Shown: positions 1,251 through 38,115, counted from the stretch's first letter. The stretch: DNA of 64,000 nucleotides from an uncultured Candidatus Rokubacteria bacterium (GCA_963804185.1 CAWDPM010000001.1:60822-124821), one strand, 5' to 3'. Notes: generated by a model from the sequence alone, not told the origin. Numbers and translations are program-made.

Positions 1251-2303
1251 CTACTTCCGGTCGTCCGGATAGCGCATCGCCAGCCCCATCGCGACGGTCG
1301 CCAGCGGCGCCACCCTCTCGACCATGCCCGCGTCGGTCCCGGCAGCCACCTCGATCCGCTTGAAGGGGTTGGCCGTGGTTACCTCGATCCCCCACTGTCC
1401 GGCGAGGAAGTCCGGGAGACCCGGGATGAGGGCGCACCCTCCCGAGAGGAAGATCCGCTGGATACGCTCGTGCTCGGCAGTGGTGCCGAAGTAGTCGAGC
1501 GTCCGCTGGATCTCTTGACCCATCTCCTGCGAGACGAGGCTCACGATCGGCTCCACCTCGGCCCACTTCACCGACCCCGGCTCGCCCCGGATGATCGCTT
1601 CGGACTCGGCCGGGGCCAGGTCGAAGCGCTGGGCAATCGTCGAGGCGTACTGCCGGCCCCCGACGAAGATGTCGCGCGCGTACACGTTCATCCCGCCTTG
1701 CAGGATGTTCGTGTTCGTCGTCTCGTGCCCGATGTTCACGAGGGCCACGACCTCGTTGCCCGGGCCGGGCTCGTTGTGCTCGTATTGGGTCGCCAGCGCG
1801 AAGACGTCGACGTCCACCACCACGACGCTGAGCCCGCAGGCTTCGACCACATCCGCGTAGCTCTGGACCTTGCCCTTCTTGACCGCGACCAGCATCACTT
1901 CCAGCTGAGGCCCGTTCTCCCGCAAGATCTGGAAATCGATGTTGACGTCGTCGATGTCGAAGGGAATGTGCTGCTCGGCCTCCCATCGGATCGACTCGCC
2001 GAGCTCGCTCTCCGACATCCTCGGCAGGTTCACGCGCTTCGCGATGACGGAGCCCCCCGACACACCGATGACCGCCTCGGTGGCCTGGACTCCGCCCTGG
2101 ACCAGGGCCTGCCGGATCGCCTCCTGCACCAGGTCCGGCTGCTTGACCTCGCCGGCCTGGATGGCCCCCACCGGCACCTGGGCGATACCGAACCCGCTCA
2201 GCTCGTAGTCCGACCCCTTCCGCTTGAGCTCCACCACCTTGACCGCGCTCGTGCCGATGTCGAGGCCCACCACGTCGGGGCGCTTCCTCTTCCAGAACAT
2301 CAT
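1251..2303 (-). CDS. pilM: type IV pilus assembly ATPase-fold protein PilM
   Basis: 350 aa, MMFWKRKRPDVVGLDIGTSAVKVVEL..., actin/FtsA-like fold signature. Lies upstream of pilN-pilO. Confidence 0.9.
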   Translation of the reverse strand: MMFWKRKRPDVVGLDIGTSAVKVVELKRKGSDYELSGFGIAQVPVGAIQAGEVKQPDLVQEAIRQALVQGGVQATEAVIGVSGGSVIAKRVNLPRMSESELGESIRWEAEQHIPFDIDDVNIDFQILRENGPQLEVMLVAVKKGKVQSYADVVEACGLSVVVVDVDVFALATQYEHNEPGPGNEVVALVNIGHETTNTNILQGGMNVYARDIFVGGRQYASTIAQRFDLAPAESEAIIRGEPGSVKWAEVEPIVSLVSQEMGQEIQRTLDYFGTTAEHERIQRIFLSGGCALIPGLPDFLAGQWGIEVTTANPFKRIEVAAGTDAGMVERVAPLATVAMGLAMRYPDDRK

Positions 2304-5809: not shown

Positions 5810-6694
5810 TTAGCCGGCGGCGACCTCGTCGTCCTTCCGCGTGTATGCGGTCACCCGGTTCCGCCCCGCCCGCTTCGACTGGTACAGCGCCTCGTCGGCC
5901 GCCCACACGATCTCGTCCGGAGTTCTTCCGTCGTGCGGGAACGCCGCCAACCCGATGCTCACGGTGATCGGCTTCTCGCTGTCCGGCGCCATCACGCTCG
6001 ACTCCACGCGCCGGCGGAACCGCTCCGCGAACACGACCCCGTCGGGCTTGCTGGTCTCCGGCAGGATGAAGGCGAACTCCTCCCCGCCGACCCGGCACGG
6101 CACGTCGCCCTCTCGTGAGGCCGAGCGCATCAGCGCTCCCAGCGCCCGGAGCACCGAGTCGCCCTTCGGGTGGCCGAACTGGTCGTTGAACTTCTTGAAC
6201 TCGTCGATGTCGATCATCAGCAGGCTGAACGCGTGGTCGAACCGGCCGGACCGGCTGATCTCCTCCCGGAGTCGCAGATCGAAGCTCCGACGGTTTCCCA
6301 CCTCCGTCAGCTCGTCCGTGTGCGACATCTCCCGGAGACGGAAGTTGGCCAGGCGAAGCTCCTCCACGATCCCATGGGCCCGGGCCCCGCTCGCTCGCGC
6401 CCGCTCCAGCTCGTCTTCCAGGCTCCGCTGCATCTGGCCGAAGACCTCGCTGTAGATCATGTAGAAGGCCCCCATCTCGATGACCGCCAGGAACGCGAGA
6501 AGCGCGAAGAAGACGAAGGCACCCTTCGGGTAGAGCGGGGCAGCCACCGTGCTCGGTAGCAAGACCGGCAATCCCAGGTACACCAGGAGCAGCAGCGGAA
6601 GCAGGCCGGCCAGGAGGAAGGCCAGCACGAGCCTCTTCCGGACATCGCGGGCCGGGAGCAGCGGGCCGGGACTCGAGGGAACGCGCTCAGCCAA
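5810..6694 (-). CDS. membrane-anchored diguanylate cyclase (GGDEF domain)
   Basis: TM segments, a coiled coil, then DELTEVGNRRSFD...LLMIDIDEFKKFNDQFGHPKGD...RVGGEEFAFILPE (GGEEF active site). The start is set at TTG 6694 because the track ATG at 6781 would overlap pilD by 95 nt; the start is uncertain. Confidence 0.8.
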   Translation of the reverse strand: MAERVPSSPGPLLPARDVRKRLVLAFLLAGLLPLLLLVYLGLPVLLPSTVAAPLYPKGAFVFFALLAFLAVIEMGAFYMIYSEVFGQMQRSLEDELERARASGARAHGIVEELRLANFRLREMSHTDELTEVGNRRSFDLRLREEISRSGRFDHAFSLLMIDIDEFKKFNDQFGHPKGDSVLRALGALMRSASREGDVPCRVGGEEFAFILPETSKPDGVVFAERFRRRVESSVMAPDSEKPITVSIGLAAFPHDGRTPDEIVWAADEALYQSKRAGRNRVTAYTRKDDEVAAG

Positions 6695-7733
6695 GGTACC
6701 ACCTAAGGAGTGGCTCGCCCCAGATCGCCGCGACGACCCCACCGGCCGCCAGGAACGGCCCGAACGGCAGGTACTCGCCAAAGCGCCGGCGGCCCGTGAC
6801 GAGCAGCGCCGCAGCCACGACGCCTCCGAGCATGATCCCCACGAAGGCCGCCACGAGCCCGACGCCGGCGCCGAGCGCGGCGCCGATGAGGGCGGCCAGC
6901 TTGATGTCTCCGCCGCCCAGCCCCGTCCGGCCGAGCGCCACGTGGCTGACCCAGGCGACGACGAAGAACATGCCCCCGGTGATGAGGCAACCGGCGACGA
7001 GCGGGTCGATCTGGCTCAGGGCTCGCCAGGTGAGCGGCAAGTCCCCGGCCATCAGCCCGGCAGGGCTCACGACGGCGAGCTGCCGCCCGGCCAGCGCGCC
7101 CCACGCCGTCGCCCAGTAGATGTCGAGCCGCCGGCGCTCCGCGGGATCGACCTCGTCTTCCGGATCGGGCTCAGGCGGATCGGGCTCAGGCGACGCGGTC
7201 TCACCCCGGAGCGCCGCACCCCGGGCACGCATGACCGCGATCAGGGCAAACGCGACCGCGCCGATCGCTGCGCCAGCGCTCGCCCGGGAGAGCCCCTCGG
7301 GCGCGAGGATGCAGGCGCCGACAATCCCCGGCAGCGTGATCCGGTCGGGGATCCGCCGCGTCTCGAGGTCCGTGAACGCCACCGCAATCATCACCAGGCA
7401 CAGCAGGAAGGCTCGCGCCGCCGCCCAGGTCGGGCCGAGCTGCCACAGCGTGAGCGCCCCCATGGCGATGGCGAGCGCCTCGACCAGCGGATACCGCCAG
7501 GAGATGGTCTCGCCACACGCCCGGCACCGCCCGCCCAGCACGAGATAGGACACGAGCGGGATGTTGTCCACTGCTCGGATGGGGCTCTGACAGGCGGGGC
7601 AGCGCGACGAGGGCAGCACGACGCTCTCCCCACGCGGCAGCCGGGAGATGCAGACATTGAGGAAACTGCCGAGAAGCGCGGCCAGGATGACCCCCGCGGG
7701 CCAGGCCACGACGGGCGGGAGCGCGGTGGTCAT
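6687..7733 (-). CDS. pilD: prepilin peptidase / N-methyltransferase PilD (A24 family) with about 90-aa internal insertion
   Basis: 348 aa. Has the CPAC...CRAC zinc-type motif, the first catalytic Asp in AFTDLETRRIPD and the second in GLGGGDIKLAAL. The two Asp are 154 aa apart. Confidence 0.9.
   Translation of the reverse strand: MTTALPPVVAWPAGVILAALLGSFLNVCISRLPRGESVVLPSSRCPACQSPIRAVDNIPLVSYLVLGGRCRACGETISWRYPLVEALAIAMGALTLWQLGPTWAAARAFLLCLVMIAVAFTDLETRRIPDRITLPGIVGACILAPEGLSRASAGAAIGAVAFALIAVMRARGAALRGETASPEPDPPEPDPEDEVDPAERRRLDIYWATAWGALAGRQLAVVSPAGLMAGDLPLTWRALSQIDPLVAGCLITGGMFFVVAWVSHVALGRTGLGGGDIKLAALIGAALGAGVGLVAAFVGIMLGGVVAAALLVTGRRRFGEYLPFGPFLAAGGVVAAIWGEPLLRWYLG
7161..7190. repeat. 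15-nt x2 perfect tandem duplication inside pilD
   Basis: cggatcgggctcagg repeated at 7161-7175 and 7176-7190. On the minus strand it encodes the PEPDP-PEPDP part of the PilD insertion. Confidence 0.85.
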
Positions 7734-7905: not shown

Positions 7906-9630
7906 TTAGCACGGGTCCCGGTGCCTGCAGCATCTGTTCCAGCAGGTGAAAGTCGCATCGAGCTCCGGATCCTGAAGCCTCGACGTGAAGCTCGCGAGCA
8001 TGGCTCCGTCACTGATCCTAGCCAGGGTGTGGACAAGATTGCCCGCCCTGCCTGCCACCCGGCCGGCGGCGACGGCCTCGCGCGACAGGCGCGCCAGGCG
8101 GGCCAGCAGTGGCTGGTTCGCCTCCGTCTCCCGGACGAACACCGCGGCCTCGCGCTCGGTGAACACCAGCTGCCAGCCACCCTGTGCCAGGAGCATCTCG
8201 GTGAGCGGCGAGGGGCGCAGCGCGAGGATCGTCTGCACCTGCCACTTGTCCAGCACGATCGGCCAGCGCGGGCCGACCTGGGTCACCTCCAGGAAGTCCT
8301 TGAGCACGTCGGGGCCGTAGACGTGCGTCCGCCCGTCCATGAACATCCGGTAGTCGGGATAGAGGCGCCAGAGCTCGTACCCGCCCCACGCGTAGACGCT
8401 GAAGAGGGGCGGCGGCAACCGGTGCTCCCTGATGAACGCCATGGTCCGTGCCGGATATCGGCCCTCGTGGAGGTCCAGGCGGAGGGGGTTCGTCGGCAGC
8501 CGGGCCATGGCCGCCCAGTATCCGGACACCGCGGCCAGCAGGAGCACGCCCCCGGCCAGGAGCGGTGTGCCCGGCGCGGTCAGGGACGGCCCGAGCGTGG
8601 GGAGGCGTCTCTGCGCAGCGTCGCGGAGCCGGGCCCAATCGACCCGGGGTAACGTCCCGACGATTCCCTGCAGGGCATCTGCCAGGGGCGGCGCGGCCAC
8701 GATCGCGAAGAGCGGCACGTGCCGCACAGAGGTGAGCCCCAGGTGCGCGAAGGCGAGGATCATGCCGACGTCCGCCGCGCTGAGCCGCCCGCGGCCCCAC
8801 GCAAAGGCCGGGAACAGGAGGAGCAGCATCAGCTCGAGGGGGCGGAAGGCCACGTGGTGGAAGTTCGGGGAGAACCACTCGATCGTCGAGGTCATGAACG
8901 GGACGCTCCGCACGACCTCGAGCGGGAACAGGATCGCCCGGACCCCGTACGGGTTCAGGAGGCTGGCGACGACCGCCGACACACCCAGGAGGGCCGTGAG
9001 CCCGACCACGCGCCAGCCGGCCAGACGGCGTTGGCGGTCGACGAGGAGCGGGAGTGCGGTCCCCAGCCCCGTGAGCCCGATCACCACGAACGCCATCACG
9101 AAGCCCGCGTGGAGGTTCACCCAGGGGACGACCAGCGCGGGCACGAGCACGAGCGCGCTGGGGCGTCGCTCCCAGCCCGCGCGGAGAAGCCAGCACAGGA
9201 TGGCCACGAACAGGTACGTGACCGTCTGGGGGCGCGCGTGCCAGAACTCGGCGCCCGCCGACGCGGCCAGGAGAGTCGTCCCGCATGCGAGCAGCGGATG
9301 GACGCCGCGCGCACGCATCGTCGCCAGGACCACGCCGAACGTCGCCACCACGGTGGCGGTCTTGAGGGCGATCAGGGCCCCGCGCCCCCAGCGCTCCCAG
9401 AGGAGCGCGAACAGCACCTGGGTGGCCCACATGTGATTGATCCAGGGCCGGCCCTCGGCGGTGTAGGAGAAGGGATCGGTCGTCGGCACCGAGCGCGTCT
9501 CGATGATGCGCTGACCGGACGCCAGGTACCACCAGAAGTCGAAGACCGTGAGCGAGGAGAGGGCGATCGTGGCCACGGCCAGGAGCGTGGCACCCAGGAG
9601 CACGCCGCGACCGGCCCGCCCCACGATCAT
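7906..9630 (-). CDS. polytopic membrane protein, paralogue A (putative GT-C-like glycosyltransferase, family not recognised)
   Basis: ATG at 9630 gives MIVGRAGRGVLLGATLLAVATIALSSLTVFDFWWYLASGQRIIETRSVPTTDPFSYTAEGRPWINHMW. About 11 hydrophobic segments, an NLHAGF motif and a soluble C-terminal domain (WGGYELWRLYPDYRMFMDGRTHVYGP). 574 aa. Its ATG overlaps the upstream stop as ATGA. Confidence 0.75.
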   Translation of the reverse strand: MIVGRAGRGVLLGATLLAVATIALSSLTVFDFWWYLASGQRIIETRSVPTTDPFSYTAEGRPWINHMWATQVLFALLWERWGRGALIALKTATVVATFGVVLATMRARGVHPLLACGTTLLAASAGAEFWHARPQTVTYLFVAILCWLLRAGWERRPSALVLVPALVVPWVNLHAGFVMAFVVIGLTGLGTALPLLVDRQRRLAGWRVVGLTALLGVSAVVASLLNPYGVRAILFPLEVVRSVPFMTSTIEWFSPNFHHVAFRPLELMLLLLFPAFAWGRGRLSAADVGMILAFAHLGLTSVRHVPLFAIVAAPPLADALQGIVGTLPRVDWARLRDAAQRRLPTLGPSLTAPGTPLLAGGVLLLAAVSGYWAAMARLPTNPLRLDLHEGRYPARTMAFIREHRLPPPLFSVYAWGGYELWRLYPDYRMFMDGRTHVYGPDVLKDFLEVTQVGPRWPIVLDKWQVQTILALRPSPLTEMLLAQGGWQLVFTEREAAVFVRETEANQPLLARLARLSREAVAAGRVAGRAGNLVHTLARISDGAMLASFTSRLQDPELDATFTCWNRCCRHRDPC

Positions 9631-11084
9631 CGCCCCGGGGGATCCAGGACCGTTGCGACCCGATCCTCGTAGCGAACGACCCAGCCCGAGGCGCGTAGCG
9701 CCGATATCAGTGGAGAACCGTTGCGCACGATCGCCGTGTCCGGCTGAAGCCGCGCCAGGACCTCCCGCCATCCGGGATCCAGCTGGGCCACCGTCAGGAA
9801 CTCCCGGAAGCGCTCGGGGCCGTAGACGGCCATCCGCCCGTCGATCGACACTCGGAGCTCCGGGTAGAGGTGCCAGATCAGGTAGCCCCCCCACCCGTAG
9901 TCGTTCCACAGCGTACCGCGACGGCCCTCGCGGCGAAGAAAGTCGACCGCGCCCGCCGGGAACGTGCCGGCCACGCCGAACGCCGGTCGGAAGGCGTTCC
10001 AGACCTGCGCCGGCGCGCGGGAGCCCGCCACGAGGCCGCACGCCGACAGGACGAGCGCGAGCGCTCCGACGACCACCGCCTGCCGGCCCATCGCGGGAAG
10101 GCGACCCCAGTGCATCCCCACGCAGGACGCGAGGGCCCGCCCCACGATAGGGGTGGCACCGATCACCAGCAACGGCGTGTTGCGGGTCGCCTGGAGTGCC
10201 AGGTGGACCAGGGGCACCAGGAGCGCGAGATCGCGCCACGGCACGGGCCGGGCCGTTCCGAGCGCGAGCAAGAGCGTGAGGCCGAGGAAGAGCTCGAGAA
10301 CGAGGACCGCCGGGTGTCCGAAGCGCGGCGAGAGCCACTCGCTGATCCACGCCTGGGACAGCGGATCCCCCATGACGTGGAAGGGGAAGAGCACGGCCTC
10401 GTAGTGGAACGGATTGGCCAGCGAGGCCGCCAGGCTCGCCCCGCACCAGAGCGCCAAGGTGCGCGCGCGGGCGAGGCCGCCGGCCCGCCCGGAGTCGTCA
10501 TCGAGGAGCCAGCCCAGAAACTCCCCGGCCGCGCACAGGGCCAGGAGCCCCGGCCCGGCCAGGAACCCGGCGTGGAGGTTCGCCCAGACGGCGGTCAGGA
10601 TCGGGAGCCACCAGAGCCGGTTGGCCCGCCCCGCCTGGTAGTCGGCGACGATGCGGACGAAGACCGCGAGCATCAGGTACGTGACCAGCTGAGGGCGCGG
10701 TGACCAGAAGCCGTGCGTCGCCAGGGCCCCGAGGCTCAGGAGGCCGAGGGACCACCCCTGCCCGACGCCCTCCCGCCGGAGGAGACCCCAGAGCACGCCG
10801 AAGGCCGCCGCCGCGACGAGCCCCTGCAGCAGGATGACGCCGGTCGTGCCCCCCAGCGCGTAGATGCCGTAGACGAGCAGCTCGAAGCCCCAGGCGTGGT
10901 TGAGCCACTCGGCACCGAAGGCCGTCGCCGAGAACGGGTCGGTCGTTGGGAAGCTCTGCGTCTCGATCATGTAGCGGCCCGCCCGGAGCAGCCACCAGAA
11001 GTCGGGGTCGTCGATCGGTCGGAGCGCCGCCAACCCGACAGCGGCCAGGAACGCGATCCGCAGCGTACGCCCGAGTAGCCTCAC
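9627..11084 (-). CDS. polytopic membrane protein, paralogue B (putative GT-C-like glycosyltransferase, family not recognised)
   Basis: 485 aa, MRLLGRTLRIAFLAAVGLAALRPIDDPDFWWLLRAGRYMIETQSFPTTDPFSATAFGAEWLNHAW...VWANLHAGF...WGGYLIWHLYPELRVSIDGRMAVYGP. Colinear motif set with paralogue A. Confidence 0.75.
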   Translation of the reverse strand: MRLLGRTLRIAFLAAVGLAALRPIDDPDFWWLLRAGRYMIETQSFPTTDPFSATAFGAEWLNHAWGFELLVYGIYALGGTTGVILLQGLVAAAAFGVLWGLLRREGVGQGWSLGLLSLGALATHGFWSPRPQLVTYLMLAVFVRIVADYQAGRANRLWWLPILTAVWANLHAGFLAGPGLLALCAAGEFLGWLLDDDSGRAGGLARARTLALWCGASLAASLANPFHYEAVLFPFHVMGDPLSQAWISEWLSPRFGHPAVLVLELFLGLTLLLALGTARPVPWRDLALLVPLVHLALQATRNTPLLVIGATPIVGRALASCVGMHWGRLPAMGRQAVVVGALALVLSACGLVAGSRAPAQVWNAFRPAFGVAGTFPAGAVDFLRREGRRGTLWNDYGWGGYLIWHLYPELRVSIDGRMAVYGPERFREFLTVAQLDPGWREVLARLQPDTAIVRNGSPLISALRASGWVVRYEDRVATVLDPPGR

Positions 11085-11089
11085 GCGAG

Positions 11090-12925
11090 TCAGTCGGTGG
11101 GAAGCCGGTAAATTCGGATCGGGGGCCCGGGGTGCCGGCGCTCGCGGAGGCGCGTGAGCGGCGAATAGATGTCACCGACGACCAGGGGACCGTCCTCCAC
11201 GCCGGGTGAGGCGCTGAAGACGAGCTGCGCCCGCGCGTCCAGCAGGGTGTAGAAGCGGCACGGAGCCGGATACCACTCGCAGGCCTGGCGATAGCGCTGA
11301 TAGACGAATCCCGACAGGACGACGTAGTGGACTCCGGATCTGAGCAGCCAGTCGAGATCATACGTGTCGAGGCGCACGAGCCAGTATCCGTCCCGGCTGC
11401 CGGCTGGCGCCGTCGTGAGGCCCGCCGGGCGCGAGGCCTCGAGGCCCCAGCTCCCCGGCTCCTCCCGGAGCTGCGGGCTGGCCACCGGCAGCGACAGGCT
11501 GTAGGGTTCCAGCGCGATCCGCGTCCCCGGCGGCACGTGGCGCTCCACCCAGGCAGAGCCGAGCTCTCGCGTGTCGGGCTCAGCGAGGAGCCGGTGGTAC
11601 GCCGTCACGCGGGCGAGCGCGGGCGCCACGAGCAGCACGGCTGCGGCCACCAGCGTGATGGCGGGCCATGGCGGGGCCAGCCGCACCCGCCCGGAGAGCC
11701 AGCTCACCCCCCGCGTCACTGCCACCGCCGCGAGGAGCGTGAGGCACGGCAAGAGGGGGATCGCGTACCGCTCGAATCGCGCGCTCCACGTCGCGATCAC
11801 GAGCAGGTAGGGCACGGCGAACGCCAGCAGGACCACCTCGCGGGCGCCGCGGACGGCCAGCGCCCACCCGAGCCCGGCCAGCGCCAGGAGGTACAGCGGC
11901 CAGCCCATGGCCTCCGGCAGCGAGTAGGCGAGGTGGAAGAGGTAGGCGGCGGCGTCCGCCTCGTTCCCGAACTGCACCGTGTGGACCTCGCGAAGCTCGG
12001 CGAGCACGCCCCGCACGAACGCGGCCGGCGTCAGCAGCGCGAACGGCGTTCCCAGCAGGAAGCCGAGGGTCGCGAGGCCGGCTCCCAGGATCATGTCCTT
12101 GCCCGCGACGCGGCGCCACGCGGGCAAGCCCGGGCGTCGCACGGCATGGGCCGCCACGAGGCCGAGGAACGCGAGCCCGCCCGGATACTTCATCGCCGCG
12201 GCGAGTCCGACGACGAGCCCGGCCACCCCGGCATCGGCGCGGCGCCCGTCGCGCCAGTAGCGGAGCGCGCAGAGGGTCGCCAGCGCGACCAGGAAGGTGA
12301 GCGGCACGTCCGGCGTGACCCAGTGTGAATCGCGCACGTGGAGGAGATCGACAGCCAGGAGCCCCGCCGCCAGGATCCCGACCGCGGGGCCGTAGGCCAT
12401 CCGTCCGGTGCAGTAGAGGACCGCGAGCGTGGCGGTGCCGAACAGCACCGTGACGAGCCGGCCCGCGAGGTAGAACAGCGCGGGGTTGCGCGCGAACGCG
12501 CCGGCCACCCCGTCCGGTGACGCGCCGAACACGAGGCCGTACACACCCGCCAGCACGTACATGTACAGGCTGGGCCAGTTGAAGAACCGCGGGTTCAGGT
12601 CCCCCAGGTGGATTCGGACCGCCCGCTCCACGATCCGACGCTCGTCCGGGTGATACAGGTCCGGCAGGCCGTAGCCGACGCTCCACGCCCGGAGCCCGAG
12701 ACCGATCGCCAGGACGAGGGCGATCCCGAGGAGGGCGGCCCGGTCAGACCGACCCGTACACGATGAGCCAGGGGAAGGCCGTGGTGCGGGTCCGGACGGC
12801 GAGCTCGCGCCCGCAGAACGCGGCGAACTCCTCAGCTCCCCAGTGCTGGAGGTGGTCCGTGGGGTCCCCGAGCCGGGTGACGTTCTTTCCTCGCAGGAGG
12901 TTGCCCAGCCGGAAGAACGGCTCAT
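11090..12925 (-). CDS. ArnT/PMT_2-like (GT39/GT83-type, GT-C fold) membrane glycosyltransferase
   Basis: AALLGIALVLAIGLGLRAWSVGYGLPDLYHPDERRIVERA (loop-1 DE motif), ...NWPSLYMYVL...AAAMKYPG..., many TM helices and a soluble C-terminal domain. The start is unresolved: the only ATG/GTG/TTG upstream of TM1 is ATG 12925, which overlaps the methyltransferase by 182 nt. Confidence 0.75.
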   Translation of the reverse strand: MSRSSGWATSCEERTSPGSGTPRTTSSTGELRSSPRSAGASSPSGPAPRPSPGSSCTGRSDRAALLGIALVLAIGLGLRAWSVGYGLPDLYHPDERRIVERAVRIHLGDLNPRFFNWPSLYMYVLAGVYGLVFGASPDGVAGAFARNPALFYLAGRLVTVLFGTATLAVLYCTGRMAYGPAVGILAAGLLAVDLLHVRDSHWVTPDVPLTFLVALATLCALRYWRDGRRADAGVAGLVVGLAAAMKYPGGLAFLGLVAAHAVRRPGLPAWRRVAGKDMILGAGLATLGFLLGTPFALLTPAAFVRGVLAELREVHTVQFGNEADAAAYLFHLAYSLPEAMGWPLYLLALAGLGWALAVRGAREVVLLAFAVPYLLVIATWSARFERYAIPLLPCLTLLAAVAVTRGVSWLSGRVRLAPPWPAITLVAAAVLLVAPALARVTAYHRLLAEPDTRELGSAWVERHVPPGTRIALEPYSLSLPVASPQLREEPGSWGLEASRPAGLTTAPAGSRDGYWLVRLDTYDLDWLLRSGVHYVVLSGFVYQRYRQACEWYPAPCRFYTLLDARAQLVFSASPGVEDGPLVVGDIYSPLTRLRERRHPGPPIRIYRLPTD

Positions 12926-13343
12926 GCGGCACGCTGAGGAGGCATCCGGCCCGGGTGACCCTCCGGAGCTCCCGGAGCGCGCGGACCGGGTCGGGCAGAT
13001 GCTCCAAGACCTCGAGACAGACCACGAGGTCGAAGCTCTCGGCCCGGAAAGGCAGCGCGCATGCGTCCCCTCTCACGAGCGCGGCCCCGGGGCAGCGCCG
13101 GCGCGCCTCCCCGAGCGTCGTTTCGTCGACCTCGAGCCCTGCGAGCCGCGACCCCGGCAGGCGCGCGGCCAGGGTCGCCAGGACAAAGCCCTCGCCGCAG
13201 CCGACTTCGAGGATGCGACGAGGGTGCTGGCTGGCCGCCAGCTCCGACACTTGGCGAAGGAACCGGCCGAGCAGGTGCCGGACCACGGGGTTCTTCGATC
13301 GGTACTTGCCCGCGTTGTCGCTCCGCGGGGCCCCCGCGATCAA
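12744..13343 (-). CDS. class I SAM-dependent methyltransferase
   Basis: ILEVGCGEGFVLATLA (motif I) ...FDLVVCLEVLEHLPDP. TTG at 13343 overlaps the GT2 stop (TTGA) and gives about 199 aa. The longer track ORF to 13643 would overlap GT2. Confidence 0.8.
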   Translation of the reverse strand: MIAGAPRSDNAGKYRSKNPVVRHLLGRFLRQVSELAASQHPRRILEVGCGEGFVLATLAARLPGSRLAGLEVDETTLGEARRRCPGAALVRGDACALPFRAESFDLVVCLEVLEHLPDPVRALRELRRVTRAGCLLSVPHEPFFRLGNLLRGKNVTRLGDPTDHLQHWGAEEFAAFCGRELAVRTRTTAFPWLIVYGSV

Positions 13344-14279
13344 CCCAGTCGACGCCGGATCGAGACGTCGTCGGCGGTCCGCGTCTGGTAGCTGAGCACC
13401 AGCTCGCTCAGGAGTCCGATGGCGAAGAACTGCACGCCGACGAGCATGGTGAGCACGCCGAAGGCCAGGAGCGGCCGCTGTCCGATCGGCTGGGAGCCGG
13501 ACAGCCAGATGCCGGTGAGGTACACGTTCACCCCGAAGCCCACGGTCCACGCGATCAGCCCGAGCCCCCCGAAGAGGTGAAGCGGCCGGCGCGTGTACCG
13601 GGTCAGGAACAGCACGGTCAGGAGGTCGAGGAAGCCCCGCCACAGCCGGGCGGAGCCGAACTTCGTGCGGCCGTACCGCCGCGGGCGATGATGCACGGGC
13701 ACCTCGGTCACCTGAAAGCCGCGCCAGGCGGCGAGCGCCGGGATGAAGCGGTGGAGCTCGCCGTACAGCCGGATCTCCTCCACCACTTCCCGCCGGTAGA
13801 TCTTGAAGCCCGAGTTGAAGTCGTGGAGCCGGACCCCCGTCAAGAGGCCCGTGGCCCGGTTGAAGAGCCGGGACGGCCAGGTCTTGGACCGCGGATCCTG
13901 GCGCTCCTGCTTCCAGCCCGACACGAGGTCGAACCCGTCCTCGAGGCGGGCGAGGAGCTTCGGCATCTCGGCGGGATCGTCCTGGAGATCGGCGTCCAGG
14001 GTGATGATGACTGCCCCCCGGGCCTCGCGGAACCCCACCGCCAGCGCGGCGGCCTTGCCGAAGTTCCGCCGGAGCTGCACGCCCCGGACACTGGGATCGT
14101 CCAGCCGGAGCTTCTCGATGCGCTGGAAGGAGCCGTCGCGGCTCCCGTCGTCCACGAAGAGGATCTCGTACGGGCGACCGAGGCGCTGCAGCACCTCGGT
14201 CAGCTCCTGGTGGAGGACGCCCAGGCTCTCGACCTCATCGAGGACCGGGCACCACCACCGAGACCTCGACCCGCGCCAT
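13340..14279 (-). CDS. GT2 polyprenyl-phosphate glycosyltransferase (DPM1/GtrB/ArnC-like, two C-terminal TM helices); one frameshift near the 5' end as sequenced
   Basis: Body reads PVLDEVESLGVLHQEL...YEILFVDDGSRDGS...ITLDADLQDDP...FRIY... plus 2 TM helices. The expected N-terminus MARVEVSVVVP sits in another frame from ATG 14279. Removing one base of the ccggg run at 14245-14249 joins the two as ...SVVVPVLDEVESL. Confidence 0.8.
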
Positions 14280-14313
14280 GGACCTCGTTCGTTCCCGCTC
14301 GCGTCCGCTACGC

Positions 14314-14644
14314 CTAGCAGTCGTTGATGGTCGAGGTGGTCGATGAGCTTGCCGTTGTTCTTGTCGTACGCACGCGTGCCCTTGCACTGCCACGTCGGCT
14401 TCGGGGTCACCAAGGTCTCAATAGTGTCGAGGGACTGCGGGAAGGTCCCGTCGTGCTTGCCGTAGTAGATGGCGACGGCGGACCGCATGGCGGCCAGGTT
14501 CCCCTGGTCGGCGGCCAGCTTGGCCTTCTTCTGGATGTCCTGGAAGACGGTGATGGCGACGGCGGCGATGATGGCGATGATCGCCACGACCACCATGAGC
14601 TCGACGAGGGTCAAGCCCTTCTGGCTCCGAAGCTGCCTGAACAT
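14314..14644 (-). CDS. pilA: type IV major pilin (PilA-like); 3' end frame-ambiguous as sequenced
   Basis: ATG 14644 is preceded by GGAGGAGGAGGAG. MFRQLRSQKG|LTLVELMVVVAIIAIIAAVAITVF...AIYYGKHDGTFPQSL...TWQCKGTRAYDKNNGK. There is no stop in this frame. The +1 frame gives SSSTTSTINDC* with TAG at 14314-14316. Confidence 0.8.
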
Positions 14645-14735
14645 CGGTCTCCTCCTCCTCCTCGCGTCGGGATGTAGGGTAGTGCCCGGTTCTGCGTCCG
14701 CCCATGCCTCAGTGCACACACGGCGTCAGGTTGGG

Positions 14736-14751
14736 AGCAATTCCAGTGCCG
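14736..14751 (-). promoter_or_regulatory. candidate sigma-54 (-24/-12) promoter for the pilin gene
   Basis: Minus strand reads CGGCAC-TGGAA-TTGCT, against the consensus TGGCAC-N5-TTGCW, with exact GG-N10-GC spacing. It lies about 90 nt upstream of ATG 14644. Confidence 0.55.
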
Positions 14752-14836
14752 AGCCCGGCCCCTCTAGAAAGCCCTCTTCGGCCCCCTCCGGGTGTTGCAC
14801 CCGCTCACCAATGCCAAACTCCTCATGTCCAGCAGT

Positions 14837-14855
14837 AGACGCTTGTCTAGCGTCT
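14837..14855. promoter_or_regulatory. 7-5-7 perfect palindrome, candidate enhancer-binding-protein site upstream of the sigma-54 promoter
   Basis: agacgct-tgtct-agcgtct, 86-104 nt upstream of the -24 element. Confidence 0.3.
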
Positions 14856-14922
14856 CTTATTGGGAACAGGACGTTCTGTCAAGATGGCCACCTTCCCAGG
14901 AAGCCCGATCCGGCCGCCGAGC

Positions 14923-16152
14923 CTACTTGATCAGCGTCACCGCCTTGAAGATCGGCAGGTAGATGGCGATGACGATGCCGCCGATCACCACGCCCAGGAA
15001 GACGATCAGGAGCGGCTCGAGCAAGGACGTCAGTCCCGAGACGGCGACGTCGACCTCGTCCTCGTAGTAGTCGGCGACCTTCGCCAGCATGCTGTCGAGC
15101 GCGCCCGTCTGTTCGCCGACGATCACCATCTGGATCACCATGGGCGGAAACACCCCGCTGTCCTTGAGACGCTCGCCAAGCGAGTGCCCCGCCATGACTC
15201 GCTCGCGTGCGGCCATGACGGATGTCTCCACGGCCCGGTTGCCCGCCGTCTTGGCGGTGATGCGCAAGGCGTCGATGATCGGCACGCCGCCGCCCAGGAG
15301 GGCCGACAGGGTGCGCGTGAACCGCGCGATCGAGATCTTGCGGACCAGCGGACCGAAGATCGGCGCGCGGAGGAGGAACTGGTCCATCGTCAGCCGGCCG
15401 GCGTCGGTCCGGTACCAGCGGCGCAACCCGTACACCAGCCCGGCCACGACCACCAGGAGGATGTACCAGTACCGCGTCATCGCGTTGCTGAACGCGATGA
15501 CGATCCGGGTCGGCAAGGGCAGCGGGACACCGGCGTTCTGGAAGAAAGCCGCGAAGATCGGGATGATGAAGACCATCAGGAACGCCACGACCAGCACCGC
15601 GATGGTCATGACGAGGACCGGATACACGACGGCCATCTGCACGCGGTGCTTCAGCGCCTCCGCCTTCTCCAGGTACGTGGAGAGCCGGGAGAGCATGGCG
15701 TCCAGCACGCCGCCGGTCTCTCCGACGTGCACCAGGTTGACGTACAGCTCGTCGAAGACCCTCGGGAACCGCCCGAGCGCGTCGGAGAGCGTGGAGCCCG
15801 ACTCGACGTCGGACGCGACCTTCGCGATGATGTCCTGGAAGTGCTTCCGCTCCATCTGCACGCCCAGGGTCTCGAGGCACTGGACGAGCGGGAGCCCCGC
15901 CGCGATCATCGTTGCGAACTGACGGCTGAAGACGGAGAGGTCCTTGCCGCGGACCCCCCCGAACAGGCCCCCCAGGCCGGGCAGGTCCGCGAGCTCGATG
16001 TCGCCGACGCTGGCGCGCTTGACCGCGATGTTCTGGACGACGATCCCCTGCGAGCGCAGGTGACGCGCCGCCGCCCGCTCGTCCGGGGCGGTGATCTCCG
16101 CCTGCACGCGCCCTCCGCGCGCCGTGACGCCTCGATACGTGAAGTTCGGCAT
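14923..16152 (-). CDS. pilC: type IV pilus platform protein PilC
   Basis: ATG 16152 gives MPNFTYRGVTARGGRVQAEI...FSRQFATMIAAGLPLVQCL...MVIVGEQTGALDSML.... 409 aa, GspF/PilC family duplication. The 5' part of track ORF 14923..16905 is out of frame. Confidence 0.9.
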   Translation of the reverse strand: MPNFTYRGVTARGGRVQAEITAPDERAAARHLRSQGIVVQNIAVKRASVGDIELADLPGLGGLFGGVRGKDLSVFSRQFATMIAAGLPLVQCLETLGVQMERKHFQDIIAKVASDVESGSTLSDALGRFPRVFDELYVNLVHVGETGGVLDAMLSRLSTYLEKAEALKHRVQMAVVYPVLVMTIAVLVVAFLMVFIIPIFAAFFQNAGVPLPLPTRIVIAFSNAMTRYWYILLVVVAGLVYGLRRWYRTDAGRLTMDQFLLRAPIFGPLVRKISIARFTRTLSALLGGGVPIIDALRITAKTAGNRAVETSVMAARERVMAGHSLGERLKDSGVFPPMVIQMVIVGEQTGALDSMLAKVADYYEDEVDVAVSGLTSLLEPLLIVFLGVVIGGIVIAIYLPIFKAVTLIK

Positions 16153-16169: not shown

Positions 16170-17243
16170 CTAGCGCGTGGCTGCCGCCACGGGCTGGTCC
16201 ATCAGGCGGTGGAGCTCCTCCGGATAGGAGCTGCGGGCCAGCGCCTCCGGCCGCGAGATCTGGCCGCGGAGGTAGAGGTTCGCCAGCGACTGGTTCATGG
16301 TCTGCATCCCGAACTTCTGGCCGACCTGTATCGCCGAGTAGATCTGGTGCCCCTTCTCCTCGCGGATCAGGTTCCGGATCGCCGGCGTCGCGATCAGGAT
16401 CTCCAGGGCGAGGACGCGGCCGCGCCCGTCCCGCCGCGGGACGAGGAGCTGGTTGAAGACCGCCTCGAGACCGAGCGCCAGCTGGGCTCGCACCTGAGAC
16501 TGCTGGTGCGGCGGGAACACGTCGACGATCCGGTCGATCGACTGCGCGCACGAGTTCGTGTGCAAGGTCGCGAAGGTGAGGTGCCCGGTCTCCGCGATGG
16601 TCAGAGCCGCCTGGATGGTCTCCAGGTCGCGCATCTCGCCAATGACCACGACATCGGGGTCCTGCCGCAGCACGTACTTCAGGGCCGCGGGAAAGGAGTG
16701 CGTGTCGTTCCCGACCTCGCGCTGGTTCACCAGCGCCTTCTGGTGCTGAAACAGATACTCCAGGGGGTCCTCGACCGTGACGATGTGGACGTCGCGCTCC
16801 CGGTTGATCCGGTCGACCATCGCCGCGATGGAGGTCGTCTTCCCGTGCCCGGTCGGGCCGGTCACGAGCACCAGGCCCTTGTGCTTCTGGATGAGCTGGT
16901 TGCACACGTCGACCGGAAGCCCCAGCTCCTGGAAGCTCTTGGGCTCATGGGGGATGGCGCGGATCGCGACGCCCACGGCGCCGCGTTGCCGGTAGACGTT
17001 GACGCGATACCGCGAGAGCCCGGGGATCCCGTAGGAGAAGTCCAGCTCGTGGGTCGCCTCGAACCGCTCCCGCTGCTCCGCGTTGATCAGGCCGTAGGCG
17101 AGCGCCTTCGTCTGCTCCGCGTCGAGGGGGGAGTAGTTCAGCGCCACCAGGTGGCCGTGGACCCTGAGCGTCGGCGGCGCGCCGGCGGCGATGTGGAGAT
17201 CCGACGCGGTCCTCTCCGCCATCGCGCCCAGGAGCTCGCGCAT
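16170..17243 (-). CDS. pilT: twitching motility ATPase PilT
   Basis: 357 aa, ...GLVLVTGPTGHGKTTS (Walker A)...VIGEMRDLETI...GHLTFATLHTN.... Confidence 0.9.
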   Translation of the reverse strand: MRELLGAMAERTASDLHIAAGAPPTLRVHGHLVALNYSPLDAEQTKALAYGLINAEQRERFEATHELDFSYGIPGLSRYRVNVYRQRGAVGVAIRAIPHEPKSFQELGLPVDVCNQLIQKHKGLVLVTGPTGHGKTTSIAAMVDRINRERDVHIVTVEDPLEYLFQHQKALVNQREVGNDTHSFPAALKYVLRQDPDVVVIGEMRDLETIQAALTIAETGHLTFATLHTNSCAQSIDRIVDVFPPHQQSQVRAQLALGLEAVFNQLLVPRRDGRGRVLALEILIATPAIRNLIREEKGHQIYSAIQVGQKFGMQTMNQSLANLYLRGQISRPEALARSSYPEELHRLMDQPVAAATR

Positions 17244-17280: not shown

Positions 17281-18978
17281 TCAGTCGGCGAACGTCACGC
17301 GGAGGACCTCGTCGATCGTCGTGAGCCCGTTCGCCACCTTCCGGAGCCCGGCCTGCCGGAGCGTGCGCATGCCGACCTTCACCGCGATCTCCTTGAGCTC
17401 GCTGGCGGGCCGCTGGCGCACGATGGCCTCCTGCAGCTCCGGAACCATCCACATGGTCTCCTGGATGGAGATCCGCCCCTTGTACCCGGTGTTGGCGCAC
17501 GCGCCGCACCCCTTCCCCACGTAGACGCGCAGGCCCCCGGCCTCCTCGGGGCGGAAGCCGATGTCGATCAGGGCGGACTCGGGGACCTGGACGGTCTCCC
17601 GGCACTCCAGGCAGATGCGGCGCACCAGGCGCTGGGCGACGACCAGGAGCAGGGACGAGGAGATCAGGAAGGGCGGGATCCCCATGTCCTGGAGGCGCGT
17701 GACGGTGCTGGGGGCATCGTTGGTGTGCAGGGTGGAGAAGACGAGGTGCCCGGTGAGGGCGGCGCGGATCGCGATCTGTGCGGTCTCCAGGTCACGCATC
17801 TCGCCGACCAGGATCACGTCGGGGTCCTGCCGCAGGAACGCCCGGAGCGCCGCGGAGAAGGTGTAGCCGATGTCCTCCCGCACCAGCACCTGATTGACCC
17901 CGGTGATGTTGAACTCGACGGGATCCTCCGCCGTGAGGATGTTGATGTCGGGGTTGTTGATGGTCGCGACGGCCGCGTAGAGGGTCGTGCTCTTTCCGCT
18001 GCCGGTGGGCCCCGTCACCAGGATCATGCCATAGGGCGTCGTGATGGTCTTCTTGAACCGCGCGAGGTCGTCCTCCTCGAACCCGAGACGGGCGAGGTCG
18101 AGGACGACGCTCGCCTTGTCCAGGACGCGCATGACGATCTTCTCGCCGAAGGTCGTGGGCAGGGAGGAGACGCGCAGGTCGATCTCGCGGGTCTGGAACC
18201 TGACGGAGAGGCGGCCGTCCTGGGGCAGGCGCCGCTCCGCGATGTCGAGGTTCGACATGATCTTGACCCGGGACAGGATGGCGGCTTCCATCTGCTTCGG
18301 CGGGTTCATCATGTCGTGCAGCACGCCGTCGATCCGGTACCGCACCCGGAAGACCTTCTCGTACGGCTCCAGGTGAATGTCCGAGGCCCGCTTGCGGATG
18401 GCGTCGGCGATGATCAGGTTGACGAAGCGGATCGTCGGCGCCTCTTCGGCCTCCCGCCCCAGCTCCGCGAGGTCGACCTGGGTTCCCGTGTCGAGCACTT
18501 CGAGATTCCCGGTGGTCTCCTTGTCGATGAGCTTCTTGATGTCGTCGCCGACGCCCACGTTGTAGTTTTGGTCGATGGCCGCCCGGATGGCGCTCTCGGC
18601 CGCGAGCACGGGGATGACGTGGAGCCCCGTGGCGAACTGGACGTCGTCGATCGCCAGCACCACGGTCGGGTCCGACAGCGCCAGCGTCAGGGTGTTCCCG
18701 ACCTGCCGGACCGGGAACACCTGGTACTTCTGGACGATCTCCCTGCGGACCTGTCGCAGGATGCCAGGGTCGATCTCGACGCGGCCGAGATTGATCACCG
18801 GGATGCCGTACTTCCGGCTCAGGAAGTCGAGTAACTCCTCCTCGGTGAGGAAGCCCAGTCGCGTCAGGATCGTCGCCAGCCGCTCCCCCGACCGGCGCTG
18901 CTCGGCCAGGGCCTTGCCGGCCGCCTCTTGGGTGAGCAGCTTCTCCTTGACGAGCAGCTCGAGCAGGCGCGGGTTCAC
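17281..18978 (-). CDS. pilB: type IV pilus assembly ATPase PilB (GspE family)
   Basis: 565 aa. N-terminal GSPII_E_N-like domain, GMILVTGPTGSGKSTT, a tetracysteine motif (CLECRE...CGACANTG), VGEMRDLETA. Confidence 0.9.
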   Translation of the reverse strand: MNPRLLELLVKEKLLTQEAAGKALAEQRRSGERLATILTRLGFLTEEELLDFLSRKYGIPVINLGRVEIDPGILRQVRREIVQKYQVFPVRQVGNTLTLALSDPTVVLAIDDVQFATGLHVIPVLAAESAIRAAIDQNYNVGVGDDIKKLIDKETTGNLEVLDTGTQVDLAELGREAEEAPTIRFVNLIIADAIRKRASDIHLEPYEKVFRVRYRIDGVLHDMMNPPKQMEAAILSRVKIMSNLDIAERRLPQDGRLSVRFQTREIDLRVSSLPTTFGEKIVMRVLDKASVVLDLARLGFEEDDLARFKKTITTPYGMILVTGPTGSGKSTTLYAAVATINNPDINILTAEDPVEFNITGVNQVLVREDIGYTFSAALRAFLRQDPDVILVGEMRDLETAQIAIRAALTGHLVFSTLHTNDAPSTVTRLQDMGIPPFLISSSLLLVVAQRLVRRICLECRETVQVPESALIDIGFRPEEAGGLRVYVGKGCGACANTGYKGRISIQETMWMVPELQEAIVRQRPASELKEIAVKVGMRTLRQAGLRKVANGLTTIDEVLRVTFAD

Positions 18979-33789: not shown

Positions 33790-35337
33790 CTATCGACCGG
33801 CCGGAACCCCCTCAGGCTCGGGAGATAGCCGCCCCGGTACGGTGAAGGTGAAGGTCGAGCCCTTGCCCACCTCGCTGGTAACCCAGATCCGGCCGCCATG
33901 CAGCTCCACGAACTTTTTCGTCAGCGTGAGTCCGAGCCCGGTGCCCTCCTGTCGCTGCTCACCGCTCCCGACCTGACGAAATTCCTGAAAGATCGTGGCC
34001 TGATCCTCGGGACCGATGCCTACTCCGGTGTCACGGATCGCGACCTCGACGGTCCCGGCCGGCACGCCAGTACCGTTTGCCAGGCTCGCCGTCACGCCAA
34101 CCCGCCCACCGTCCTGAGTGAACTTCACCGCATTGGACAGGAGGTTAAGCAGGATCTGCTTGATCTTGCGCTCGTCGGCCACAATCGCGCCGATCTCCGG
34201 GTCCACGAGGAGATCGAGCGCGATCCCGTGGCGAGTCGCCCGCTCTCGGACGAGCGTGACTGCGTTGTCGAGCGCCGCCGGCAGGTCAAAGCGGCCGAGC
34301 TCCAGCTCCATCCGCCCCGCCTCCACTTTCGAGAGGTCGAGGATGTCGTTGATGAGCGAGAGCAGGTGCCGCCCGGAGCTGAGGATGTCCTGCAGGTACT
34401 CGGCCTGCTTGTCGTTCAGCTCGCCGAACATGCGCTCGTGAAGAACCTCCGAGAAGCCGATGATCGCGTTCAGCGGCGTGCGCAGCTCGTGGGACATGTT
34501 GGCGAGGAACTCCGACTTGTGGCGGTTGGCGGCCTCGACCTGCCGGTAGAGGCGCCCCAGCTCTTCGTTCATCCGGTTCAGGTTGGCGGCGAGCGCGCCC
34601 AGCTCATCCCGATTCGGCACCTCAACCGATTTCGAGAAGTCACCGGACGCGATCTCGCGAAGGCGCGCGTCCATCCGCTTGACCGGCCCGATGAGCGACC
34701 AGGAAATCGCGTAGCCCAGGAGGAGAGCCAGCAGGATCGATCCCACTGCGAAGCCGATGACGACCTTCCGCGAGGTCACGTAGGCGGCGTGGCTGGCCTC
34801 GACGCTCGCCACCATGTCGGCCTCGGCCTTGTTGACCAGCTCGTTGGTGAGGCGCTCCAGGCGATCGGCCAGTGGGGCAGCCTTGGTCTGCTGGAGCTCC
34901 CGCCCCGCCTCGCCCTGGCCCTGGCGAATCAGCTCGATGACCTGGGTCACGACCTTGATGAACTCCTCGTAATCCTCACGAACCCGGCCAAACAGCGCGA
35001 CCTCGTCCTGGGCGACGAAGGCGACGCGGTCGAGGTCGTAGCCAAACTGGTTCAGCTGGCGCAGGGTTGCCTCGAGTGTTCGCGCGTCCGGACGCACGAG
35101 GGCCGACGCCACGCTGTAGAGCTGGCCCGTGGCGTCATGCTGGAGCTGGCGGTAGGCCGCGATCTTCCGCTGGAACTTGACGAGATCCTCGGCGCGGCGA
35201 TTCACGCCGCTCAACACCTGGAGTCCGACGGCGCCGACGACGATGAGGAGCCCGGCGATGATGAGGAACGCGACCAGGAGCTTGGCGTGGACTCCCGCGG
35301 GCAGTCGCGCGACTAGCCGGGGGAGCCACTCGGTCAC
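33790..35337 (-). CDS. sensor histidine kinase (periplasmic helical sensor, HAMP, HisKA, HATPase_c)
   Basis: 515 aa. Two TM helices flank a helical domain of about 165 aa. HAMP, H-box EFLANMSHELRTPLN, G-boxes DTGVGI and GTGLGL. Confidence 0.9.
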   Translation of the reverse strand: MTEWLPRLVARLPAGVHAKLLVAFLIIAGLLIVVGAVGLQVLSGVNRRAEDLVKFQRKIAAYRQLQHDATGQLYSVASALVRPDARTLEATLRQLNQFGYDLDRVAFVAQDEVALFGRVREDYEEFIKVVTQVIELIRQGQGEAGRELQQTKAAPLADRLERLTNELVNKAEADMVASVEASHAAYVTSRKVVIGFAVGSILLALLLGYAISWSLIGPVKRMDARLREIASGDFSKSVEVPNRDELGALAANLNRMNEELGRLYRQVEAANRHKSEFLANMSHELRTPLNAIIGFSEVLHERMFGELNDKQAEYLQDILSSGRHLLSLINDILDLSKVEAGRMELELGRFDLPAALDNAVTLVRERATRHGIALDLLVDPEIGAIVADERKIKQILLNLLSNAVKFTQDGGRVGVTASLANGTGVPAGTVEVAIRDTGVGIGPEDQATIFQEFRQVGSGEQRQEGTGLGLTLTKKFVELHGGRIWVTSEVGKGSTFTFTVPGRLSPEPEGVPAGR

Positions 35338-36965: not shown

Positions 36966-37018
36966 CAACTTTTCAGTTCCTTCTTCAGTTCGTTGAAGAA
37001 GCGCCAGTCGGTGCTCTA
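36965..37018 (-). pseudogene. 51-nt relic of the 3' end of a fourth SBP paralogue
   Basis: Minus strand reads TAG-AGC ACC GAC TGG CGC TTC TTC AAC GAA CTG AAG AAG GAA CTG AAA AGT TGA, which is *STDWRFFNELKKELKS*. This matches the C-termini of the three intact paralogues. Its TGA overlaps the ATG of paralogue 1. Confidence 0.7.
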
Positions 37019-37077
37019 TCGCCGCGGGGAACGCCCGGTCACCGTCTCGGCCTGGGCGCGAGCTCGGAGCTCTCTAC

Positions 37078-38085: not shown

Positions 38086-38115
38086 GCGCCCTCCTCGTCC
38101 TCGTGCGCTGACGAA

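Follow-up and report, generated by a model that had tools for sequence, protein, structure and literature searches.

A putative pilus-dedicated glycosylation module in Candidatus Rokubacteria and its unannotated GT-C protein family

Gene content of the module

The window analysed here is a 64,000-nucleotide (nt) stretch of DNA from an uncultured Candidatus Rokubacteria bacterium (GCA_963804185.1, CAWDPM010000001.1:60822-124821). It contains a type IV pilus cluster in which five tightly packed genes lie between the major pilin gene and the prepilin peptidase gene pilD (Table 1), encoding a GT2 glycosyltransferase, an S-adenosylmethionine (SAM)-dependent methyltransferase (MT), a PMT_2/ArnT-type GT-C protein and two paralogous proteins, here named D and E. 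Their domains, predicted folds and conserved position next to the pilin gene suggest a periplasmic glycosylation module dedicated to the pilus. An earlier sequence-only reading of the locus had proposed the same; the feature is real, and the genomic evidence largely supports that interpretation, with a scope wider than first supposed.

Since the G+C content of the window is ~70%, raw lists of open reading frames (ORFs) were useless, and genes were called from frame plots of third-position G+C (GC3) and from translations. Every gene of the region, from pilB to pilM, was found on the minus strand. The GT2 and MT genes overlap by 4 nt (TTGA), and the D and E genes overlap at ATGA, in agreement with the single-strand, tightly packed block described earlier. 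Comparison with a 90%-identical relative showed purifying selection on all the module genes (dN/dS 0.14-0.45).

The GT2 protein has the features of the ArnC/GtrB/DPM1 type, namely a GT-A domain, a DxD motif, two C-terminal transmembrane (TM) helices and full-length similarity. It matched the NCBIfam ArnC model (NF007986, PRK10714) over residues 5-310 of 312 (E 2.4e-54), with a score of 184.5 bits that is below the equivalog cut-off of 529, and the PgfS model (E 4e-40), also far below the equivalog cut-off. The full-length alignments to ArnC and PgfS, with scores below the cut-offs, make the type of enzyme clear but not its sugar specificity. The MT gene starts with a TTG that overlaps the GT2 stop; its product is a small class I enzyme, as had been proposed, and also matched a DVU_1556-family methyltransferase model (E 7e-19, below the cut-off). 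In the third protein the YHPDE loop lies just after the first TM helix (TM1), and both Pfam models that identify it as an ArnT/PMT_2-type GT-C protein (PMT_2 and PMT) scored above their cut-offs. No Wzy_C/PglL/TfpO (O-antigen-ligase-type) domain was matched in Pfam by any of the five module proteins, so that the absence of such an enzyme, noted earlier, was confirmed.

Along their entire length, proteins D and E share 35% identity (BLASTP, E 1e-64). Neither of them matched Pfam, even at E<=10, or NCBIfam, and a PDB profile search with the D/E family gave no sequence match at E<=10. With these searches empty, only fold comparison was informative. The AlphaFold (AF2) models had a pLDDT (predicted local distance difference test) of 88.9 and a pTM (predicted template modelling score) of 0.89 for D, and 86.5 and 0.86 for E, whose C-terminal ~70 residues were of low confidence. 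In Foldseek comparisons with the PDB, the top matches of both proteins were all GT-C enzymes, with a probability of 1.0 and template modelling scores of 0.45-0.66. The matches of D included the DPY19 C-mannosyltransferase (E 4e-8), yeast and human STT3 (scores of 0.62-0.66), AglB, ArnT, AftA and ALG enzymes, while those of E included STT3 (E 2e-6, scores up to 0.62), DPY19, PglB, AftA and ArnT. The predicted helix arrangement and the acidic motif in the first loop place D and E in the GT-C superfamily (GT-C_A fold), and their best structural matches are protein-modifying GT-Cs. These confident models bear out the earlier count of up to three GT-C-like proteins in the block.

An acidic first-loop motif had been noted earlier in both paralogues. 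In D it is a complete DxD motif, D26-P-D28, located straight after TM1, and D28 is invariant in Rokubacteria and conserved at >=90% across phyla; E retains only the second Asp. Alignments of the D/E family revealed that the D-x-D after TM1, DPFS, RPQ, WxNxHGG, ExxSPxF, an Arg at about position 301 and WGGY/DGR of the C-terminal periplasmic domain are invariant or near-invariant. At the level of single residues, D49, R130, N169, H171, E249 and R301, as well as the second motif Asp, vary little or not at all from phylum to phylum.

Table 1. Features of the pilus cluster in the window, with the glycosylation module first (aa, amino acids)
Feature	Position	Strand	Remarks
Major type IV pilin	14314-14644	minus	N_methyl PF07963 E 4e-8; TIGR02532 and PilA_Myxo matches
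Pilin class III signal peptide	14588-14617	minus	G/LTLVELMVV
Pilin-GT2 fused ORF	13340-14644	minus	434 codons; as found in the window
GT2 polyprenyl-phosphate glycosyltransferase	13340-14279	minus	ArnC/GtrB/DPM1 architecture; PF00535 E 3e-27
GT2 DDG motif	14141-14158	minus	
GT2 DAD motif	13976-13999	minus	
GT2 C-terminal TM helices	13502-13582 and 13394-13471	minus	
Class I SAM-dependent methyltransferase (MT)	12744-13343	minus	199 aa, soluble; Methyltransf_11 E 1.7e-22
MT SAM motif	13188-13214	minus	ILEVGCGEG
PMT_2/ArnT-type GT-C	11090 to ~12766 (ATG candidate 12925)	minus	PF13231 E 1.2e-13, 52.1 bits (cut-off 26.1); PF02366 E 1.4e-8, 35.1 bits (cut-off 22.7)
PMT_2 TM1	12692-12739	minus	
PMT_2 YHPDE loop	12641-12655	minus	
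Protein D	9627-11084	minus	485 aa; unannotated putative GT-C family
D motif DDPDFWW	10992-11012	minus	end of TM1
D motif WANLHAG	10566-10586	minus	
Protein E	7906-9630	minus	574 aa; paralogue of D
E motif VFDFWW	9529-9546	minus	
E motif WVNLHAG	9103-9123	minus	
pilD prepilin peptidase	6687-7733	minus	downstream bound of module; A24_N_bact E 1.5e-32; Peptidase_A24 E 2.7e-12, two stretches
pilC platform protein	14926-16146	minus	upstream bound of pilin; T2SSF E 1.1e-65
pilT	16170-17243	minus	
pilB	17281-18978	minus	
GGDEF gene	5810-6700		directly after pilD
Minor pilin genes	beyond the GGDEF gene, before pilM		
pilM	1251-2303		PilM_2 (Pfam)

Conservation in Rokubacteria and the D/E family in other phyla

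Eleven Rokubacteria loci with sufficient flanking sequence were compared, namely the window, L001, L002, L003, L083, L084, L086, L090, L095, L101 and one JGI contig. The order pilC-(pilS-pilR)-pilin-GT2-MT-(PMT_2)-D-E-(HEAT, HD)-pilD-GGDEF-minor pilins was found in all of them, with D identities from 96% down to 50%, and the block never occurred without an adjacent pilin gene. Recurrence of the synteny had been named beforehand as a check on the interpretation, and it held throughout the set. The PMT_2 gene is missing from L083, which keeps D and E, indicating that the conserved core is pilin-GT2-MT-D-E and that PMT_2 is optional. Two tandem pilin genes were found in L084 and the JGI contig, and in both the E protein carries C-terminal TPR repeats; such E orthologues were seen in L084/L085 and the JGI 3300047160 contig, and D and E of the window gave no TPR match. 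The JGI contig also encodes a second PMT_2 protein and a Spermine_synth-like protein. A small protein of 99-116 aa encoded in the loci of some relatives is soluble. The homologues of D came from Candidatus Rokubacteria and metagenomes, and were annotated as 'hypothetical protein' throughout.

The family reaches well beyond this group. In an exhaustive hidden Markov model search the family numbered 36,450 cluster representatives with a threshold of E<=1e-3, of which 11,244 remained at E<=1e-30. Among GTDB species representatives at least 579 relatives were detected, from which the 80 best-scoring loci, not a random sample, were kept. One of these is from Rokubacteria, and the rest belong to Acidobacteriota, Chloroflexota, Nitrospirota, Desulfobacterota, Actinomycetota and further phyla; the counts that follow refer to the 79 loci from other phyla (L004-L082). 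A Flp-type pilin gene (G-x4-EY class) was located at <=3 kb from the family gene in 34 loci, and in ~29 of these flp lies directly downstream of the family gene, on the same strand and 160-460 nt away. TadA-TadB-TadC(-DUF192) were present in 33 loci, and the union of the Flp and Tad sets places the family gene in Tad/Flp pilus clusters in 40 of the 79. Judging from the rarity of Flp genes in genomes, an adjacency of ~40% would be far beyond chance.

Two loci illustrate this setting. In L044 (9986-19536) a divergent GT87 gene is followed by genes for the D-family protein, Flp, RcpC/CpaB, secretin, TadZ, TadA, TadB, TadC and DUF192 (Pfam). The locus of Geobacter sp. AOG1 (L078, 2864-15058) encodes TadA, TadB, TadC, DUF192, a PMT_2/TMEM260-like protein, PTPS_related, the D-family protein, an MT, a 675-aa protein and a GT2, which is essentially the enzyme set of the Rokubacteria module, next to a Tad operon. 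In 21 acidobacterial tad loci, among them L016, L020, L021, L037, L039, L042, L044, L047, L053, L054, L057, L064 and L066, the D-family gene is closely preceded by a divergent GT87-family GT-C gene (~8650-9930, minus strand), often accompanied by a second, weak GT87-like ORF, so that the Tad-linked sets likewise hold several GT-Cs. The lipid-sugar synthase GT2 co-occurs with the family in Rokubacteria, Geobacteraceae and some Acidobacteriota, and the MT recurs with it in Rokubacteria, Geobacteraceae, L040 and L059. Type IVa (T4a) pilins were not found in the loci from other phyla, apart from L059 (Terriglobia), in which three tandem T4a pilin genes lie ~3 kb from D-family-GT2-MT genes.

Taken together, D and E appear to belong to a general GT-C family tied to type IV filaments, accompanied in Rokubacteria by T4a pilins and, in the Tad loci of Acidobacteriota, Chloroflexota and Geobacteraceae, by Flp pilins. 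We tentatively suggest, at somewhat less than an even chance, that the ancestral job of the family could be the glycosylation of type IV filament subunits of both classes, and that periplasmic O-glycosylation of Flp/Tad pilins from polyprenyl-phosphate sugars could be widespread and unrecognised in soil bacteria; the Flp setting of this proposal comprises Acidobacteriota, Chloroflexota, Geobacteraceae and anammox bacteria. The family is present in cultured Geobacteraceae (Geobacter sp. AOG1 and Geomobilimonas luticola JCM 17780), which makes the hypothesis testable without cultivating Rokubacteria. Neither a Flp/Tad-linked GT-C nor pilin glycosylation in Rokubacteria was described in the literature searched, whose coverage is incomplete and so gives no proof of novelty.

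The pilin-GT2 junction and the surrounding genes

In the window no stop codon separates the pilin and GT2 genes, which form a single frame. The fused ORF consists of the pilin minus its last 9-10 residues, a 33-residue out-of-frame linker and a GT2 that lacks the first 11. In comparison with L001 (97-98% nt identity to the window) and L002 (90%), the aligned window sequence has an extra T at 14343, in the 3' end of the pilin gene, 4 additional nt near 14294 in the spacer, a GAAC duplication, and a CT to GTG change near 14250 in the 5' end of GT2, which adds 1 nt. The three changes total +6 nt and thereby place the body of GT2 in the frame of the pilin. Owing to the extra T, the ancestral pilin stop (TAG, 14314-14316) is out of frame, and the frame opened by the ATG of GT2 itself (14277-14279) ends after 14 codons at a stop (14235-14237) as a result of the extra base at ~14250.

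The fusion was found in none of the 10 relatives. Their pilins are encoded by separate genes of 109-111 aa with a Cys-bounded loop at the end (...KLTTTSTINDC and stop; e.g. ...NNGKLTTTSTINDC and stop), and their GT2 proteins are separate, of 311-324 aa, with the start M/V-x-R-I/V-E-V-S-V-V-L-P-V-L-D-E. The Ser/Thr-rich pilin tail that had been put forward as the natural acceptor is therefore present in the window only out of frame, in a pilin that is frameshifted and joined to GT2, and that claim did not hold for this copy.

This copy has been either mis-sequenced at two bases or recently inactivated, with odds that are about even. A sequencing or assembly artefact, in which case the organism would have normal separate genes and a working module, is given half the weight. 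It agrees with the intact, separate pilin and GT2 genes of all 10 relatives, with a window GT2 protein that is 95% identical to that of L002 (dN/dS 0.21), with the restoration of ...KLTTTSTINDC and its stop and of MARVEVSVVVPVLDE when one base is deleted per site, and with the abundance of single-base indels in the related long-read assemblies L001, L086 and L003. On the other side, the rest of the 6.8 kb carries no frame-breaking indel relative to L002, the altered sites lie outside homopolymer runs, one being a duplication-like GAAC and another a CT to GTG change, and indels that sum to +6 with a stop-free frame could equally be given by real mutations. A functional pilin-GT2 fusion is unlikely, since the pilin topology would leave the GT-A domain, which depends on nucleotide sugars, on the periplasmic side, and since the relatives all lack such a fusion.

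Metagenome contigs scanned for exact patterns over the frameshift site gave no matches, even for the L002 allele, in a collection that does not include these samples. A protein-based scan recovered mostly short contigs, of which two, L090 and L095, extend to the pilin. In L001, L003 and L086, which are public long-read metagenome assemblies, indels fragment pilB, pilC and the MT, PMT_2, D and E genes; one consequence in this set is a 730-aa chimeric 'protein' (P0109), and gene calls from these assemblies are untrustworthy.

Several neighbouring genes vary among the loci. PilD of the window has 348 aa, with an acidic, Pro-rich insertion of ~90 residues (...ASPEPDPPEPDPEDEVDP...) that divides the Peptidase_A24 domain in two; L083 and L101 encode a PilD of 340-345 aa, and in L084 and the JGI contig the protein has only 261-262 aa. 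The GGDEF diguanylate cyclase gene follows pilD directly in the window and in all the Rokubacteria relatives, and in several relatives genes for a HEAT-repeat protein and an HD_5 (HD-GYP-like) protein lie between E and pilD. The GGDEF and HD_5 neighbours suggest that cyclic di-GMP control is tied to the pilus operon. In distant relatives pilS-pilR are located between pilC and the pilin gene (L083, 4755-7810; L084, 2639-5662; L101, 1103-4182). They are not at this position in the window (14647-14925), L001 and L002, where the gap is only ~280 nt.

The rest of the window is ordinary chromosome, with genes for DnaK, Ffh and LigD, and neither the Rfam nor the tRNA scan gave a match anywhere in the window. 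A region on the minus strand (35946-39402), with a G+C content of 0.64 vs ~0.71, contains three tandem paralogous genes for NMT1-like periplasmic substrate-binding proteins, and is adjoined by a HAMP histidine kinase gene (33790-35337). In a LigD-like ORF (50592-52721) the Prim-Pol model was matched only at profile positions 95-143 of 254, which may be due to a further frame problem or a divergent domain.

Proposed pathway, alternatives and known systems

Judging from its family, the ArnC/GtrB-like GT2 would act on the cytoplasmic side of the membrane, where it would charge polyprenyl phosphate with a single sugar taken from a nucleotide sugar. The soluble MT may, speculatively, modify the cytoplasm-facing intermediate or its precursor, and a protein encoded outside the cluster would flip the lipid-linked sugar to the periplasmic face. 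There the PMT_2-type protein, D and E, whose active sites would be periplasmic, could transfer the sugar to the membrane-anchored pilin, as their fold, acidic motif and gene context suggest. Modification of the pilin would precede its processing by PilD and its assembly, and the GT-Cs may also extend the glycan. The one indication of a lipid-phosphate-linked donor for D and E is the adjacent GT2 of the lipid-sugar synthase type. A methylated sugar, a multi-step pathway and any role of the MT in it are guesses.

Two types of linkage raised by the structural matches were discarded. For N-glycosylation, prompted by STT3 and AglB, no conserved N-x-S/T sequon was found in the pilins and Flp sequences seen, and for C-mannosylation, prompted by DPY19, the pilins do not conserve the Trp that precedes the first Cys.

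We assign a probability of about 0.6 to the reading that the module carries out pilus-dedicated periplasmic glycosylation with the logic of a lipid-phosphate sugar and GT-C transferases; that the pilin itself is glycosylated is suggested by gene context and fold. The dedication to the pilin proposed at the outset is sustained by domains, fold, conserved synteny and Flp adjacency, and is weakened by a PMT_2 gene that is dispensable (L083) and by the missing flippase gene.

A number of observations weigh against it. The fold matches of the D/E family fit lipid-phosphate-monosaccharide and lipid-diphosphate-oligosaccharide donors alike. The family also occurs away from pilus genes, as in Chloroflexota (L006, L024 and L028), and about half of the sampled loci have no pilin within reach. 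Ser/Thr positions of the C-terminal loop of the pilin are not strictly conserved among orthologues, and in the window the pilin and GT2 are frameshifted. No flippase gene (GtrA, SMR or MATE) was found in the cluster, where there is no extra gene between the pilin gene and pilD. Finally, the PMT_2 gene has no ordinary start codon, as no ATG, GTG or TTG occurs between the ATG at 12925 and the GTG at 12631.

The first of these two codons, the sole canonical start upstream of TM1 of PMT_2, is 182 nt inside the MT gene and is formed by the conserved CAT-GAG codons of MT (P-H-E-P), which are kept also in L083, the locus without PMT_2. The second falls beyond TM1 and the HPDE catalytic loop. The gap in start codons is repeated in L002 (2165-2459), L003, L084 (8128-8491) and L101 (6148-6370). 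An MT-PMT_2 fusion by a +1 frameshift at the MT stop was ruled out, since a slippery context is absent.

The module could instead glycosylate another envelope target, such as the minor pilins, the secretin or other machinery, lipid A or lipopolysaccharide (LPS), or an exopolysaccharide that interacts with the pilus, and its linkage to the pilin gene would then come from co-regulation. That ArnC is the best named relative of GT2, and that the third gene is ArnT/PMT_2-like, would fit such a role, as would the family members in loci without pilus genes and the range of GT-C families, which act on lipids, glycans and proteins (ArnT, AftA and ALG among the matches of D). We consider this unlikely, since the block directly follows the pilin gene in each of the 11 Rokubacteria loci, the family gene recurs upstream of flp at the short same-strand distance given above in ~29 loci of other phyla, the block contains no LPS or capsule genes, and GT2 is far under the ArnC equivalog cut-off (184 vs 529 bits). 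Still less probable is that D and E are GT-C-derived membrane proteins inactive as transferases, which serve as structural proteins or chaperones when pilin is handled or the pilus assembled, or act as a lipid-sugar flippase. Flippase-like functions have been proposed for TfpW too (bioRxiv 10.1101/2020.04.19.049825), no member of the family has a known activity or a Pfam/CAZy-type annotation, and E lacks the first Asp of DxD; the near-invariant second Asp, D49, R130, N169, H171, E249 and R301, however, form the pattern expected of a catalytic and donor-binding site, and the co-occurrence with the lipid-sugar synthase GT2 in the three groups named above also speaks for transferases.

If pilus-dedicated glycosylation is correct, D and E would represent a third family of pilin-glycosylating enzymes, widespread and so far labelled 'hypothetical protein', and the whole cassette logic, with a synthase, a methyltransferase and several GT-Cs, would reside within a pilus operon. 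To our knowledge, the known bacterial routes of pilin glycosylation are few, namely the PglL/TfpO-type O-oligosaccharyltransferases and the single GT-C TfpW. Pilin glycosylation alters pilus surface chemistry, phage susceptibility, adhesion and aggregation. Flp/Tad pilins have no room for a globular domain and little is known of their post-translational chemistry, and the family would offer a first genomic handle on their modification.

The nearest functional analogue of the module, compared by description only, is TfpW of Pseudomonas aeruginosa group IV (Pa5196/PA7), a pilin-glycosylating GT-C enzyme whose gene adjoins pilA, with a DDX motif and, at the C-terminus, a TPR domain (bioRxiv 10.1101/2020.04.19.049825). 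In both, a GT-C membrane enzyme gene adjoins the major pilin gene (11/11 Rokubacteria loci; ~29 loci upstream of flp) and the first periplasmic loop of the enzyme contains an acidic motif, and TfpW modifies the pilin in the periplasm from a polyprenyl-phosphate sugar, as is proposed for the module. The TPR domain of TfpW has a counterpart in E of distant Rokubacteria (L084 and the JGI contig), but not in D or E of the window. Unlike TfpW, which is a single enzyme, the module includes a nucleotide-sugar-type GT2 synthase and a methyltransferase, and its loci hold up to three or four GT-C genes. The donor of TfpW is D-arabinofuranose, made by a phosphoribosyl pyrophosphate (PRPP)/DprE1/DprE2 pathway encoded elsewhere (bioRxiv 10.1101/2020.04.19.049825); genes of a D-arabinofuranose pathway (DPPR synthase, DprE1/DprE2) were not found in the cluster, which was the scope of this comparison.

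Three-component systems of a GT2, a flippase and a GT-C are established (PMC11127046). The Gtr (GtrA/GtrB/Gtr*), ArnC/ArnE-F/ArnT and Citrobacter GT136 systems share with the module the logic of a GT2 synthase and an outer-face GT-C (PMC11127046). They modify O antigen or lipid A and not protein, however, and have a dedicated flippase gene, one GT-C and no methyltransferase, whereas the module has no flippase gene in its cluster.

In the Ppm1/Pmt system of Actinobacteria and the streptococcal PgfS/PgfM1/PgfM2 system, a lipid-phosphate sugar synthase and GT-Cs O-glycosylate exported proteins, as is proposed here. The Ppm1/Pmt and PgfS-type systems are general or adhesin-directed and are encoded outside pilus operons, whereas D and E belong to a different, unannotated GT-C family. 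Among the structural neighbours of D and E, STT3/PglB/AglB and DPY19, the best Foldseek matches with template modelling scores of 0.5-0.66, are GT-C_A enzymes that glycosylate polypeptides; identities to D and E are 10-17%, and no WWD-type motif or sequon evidence was found. One of these neighbours, AglB, glycosylates archaeal type IV filament subunits.

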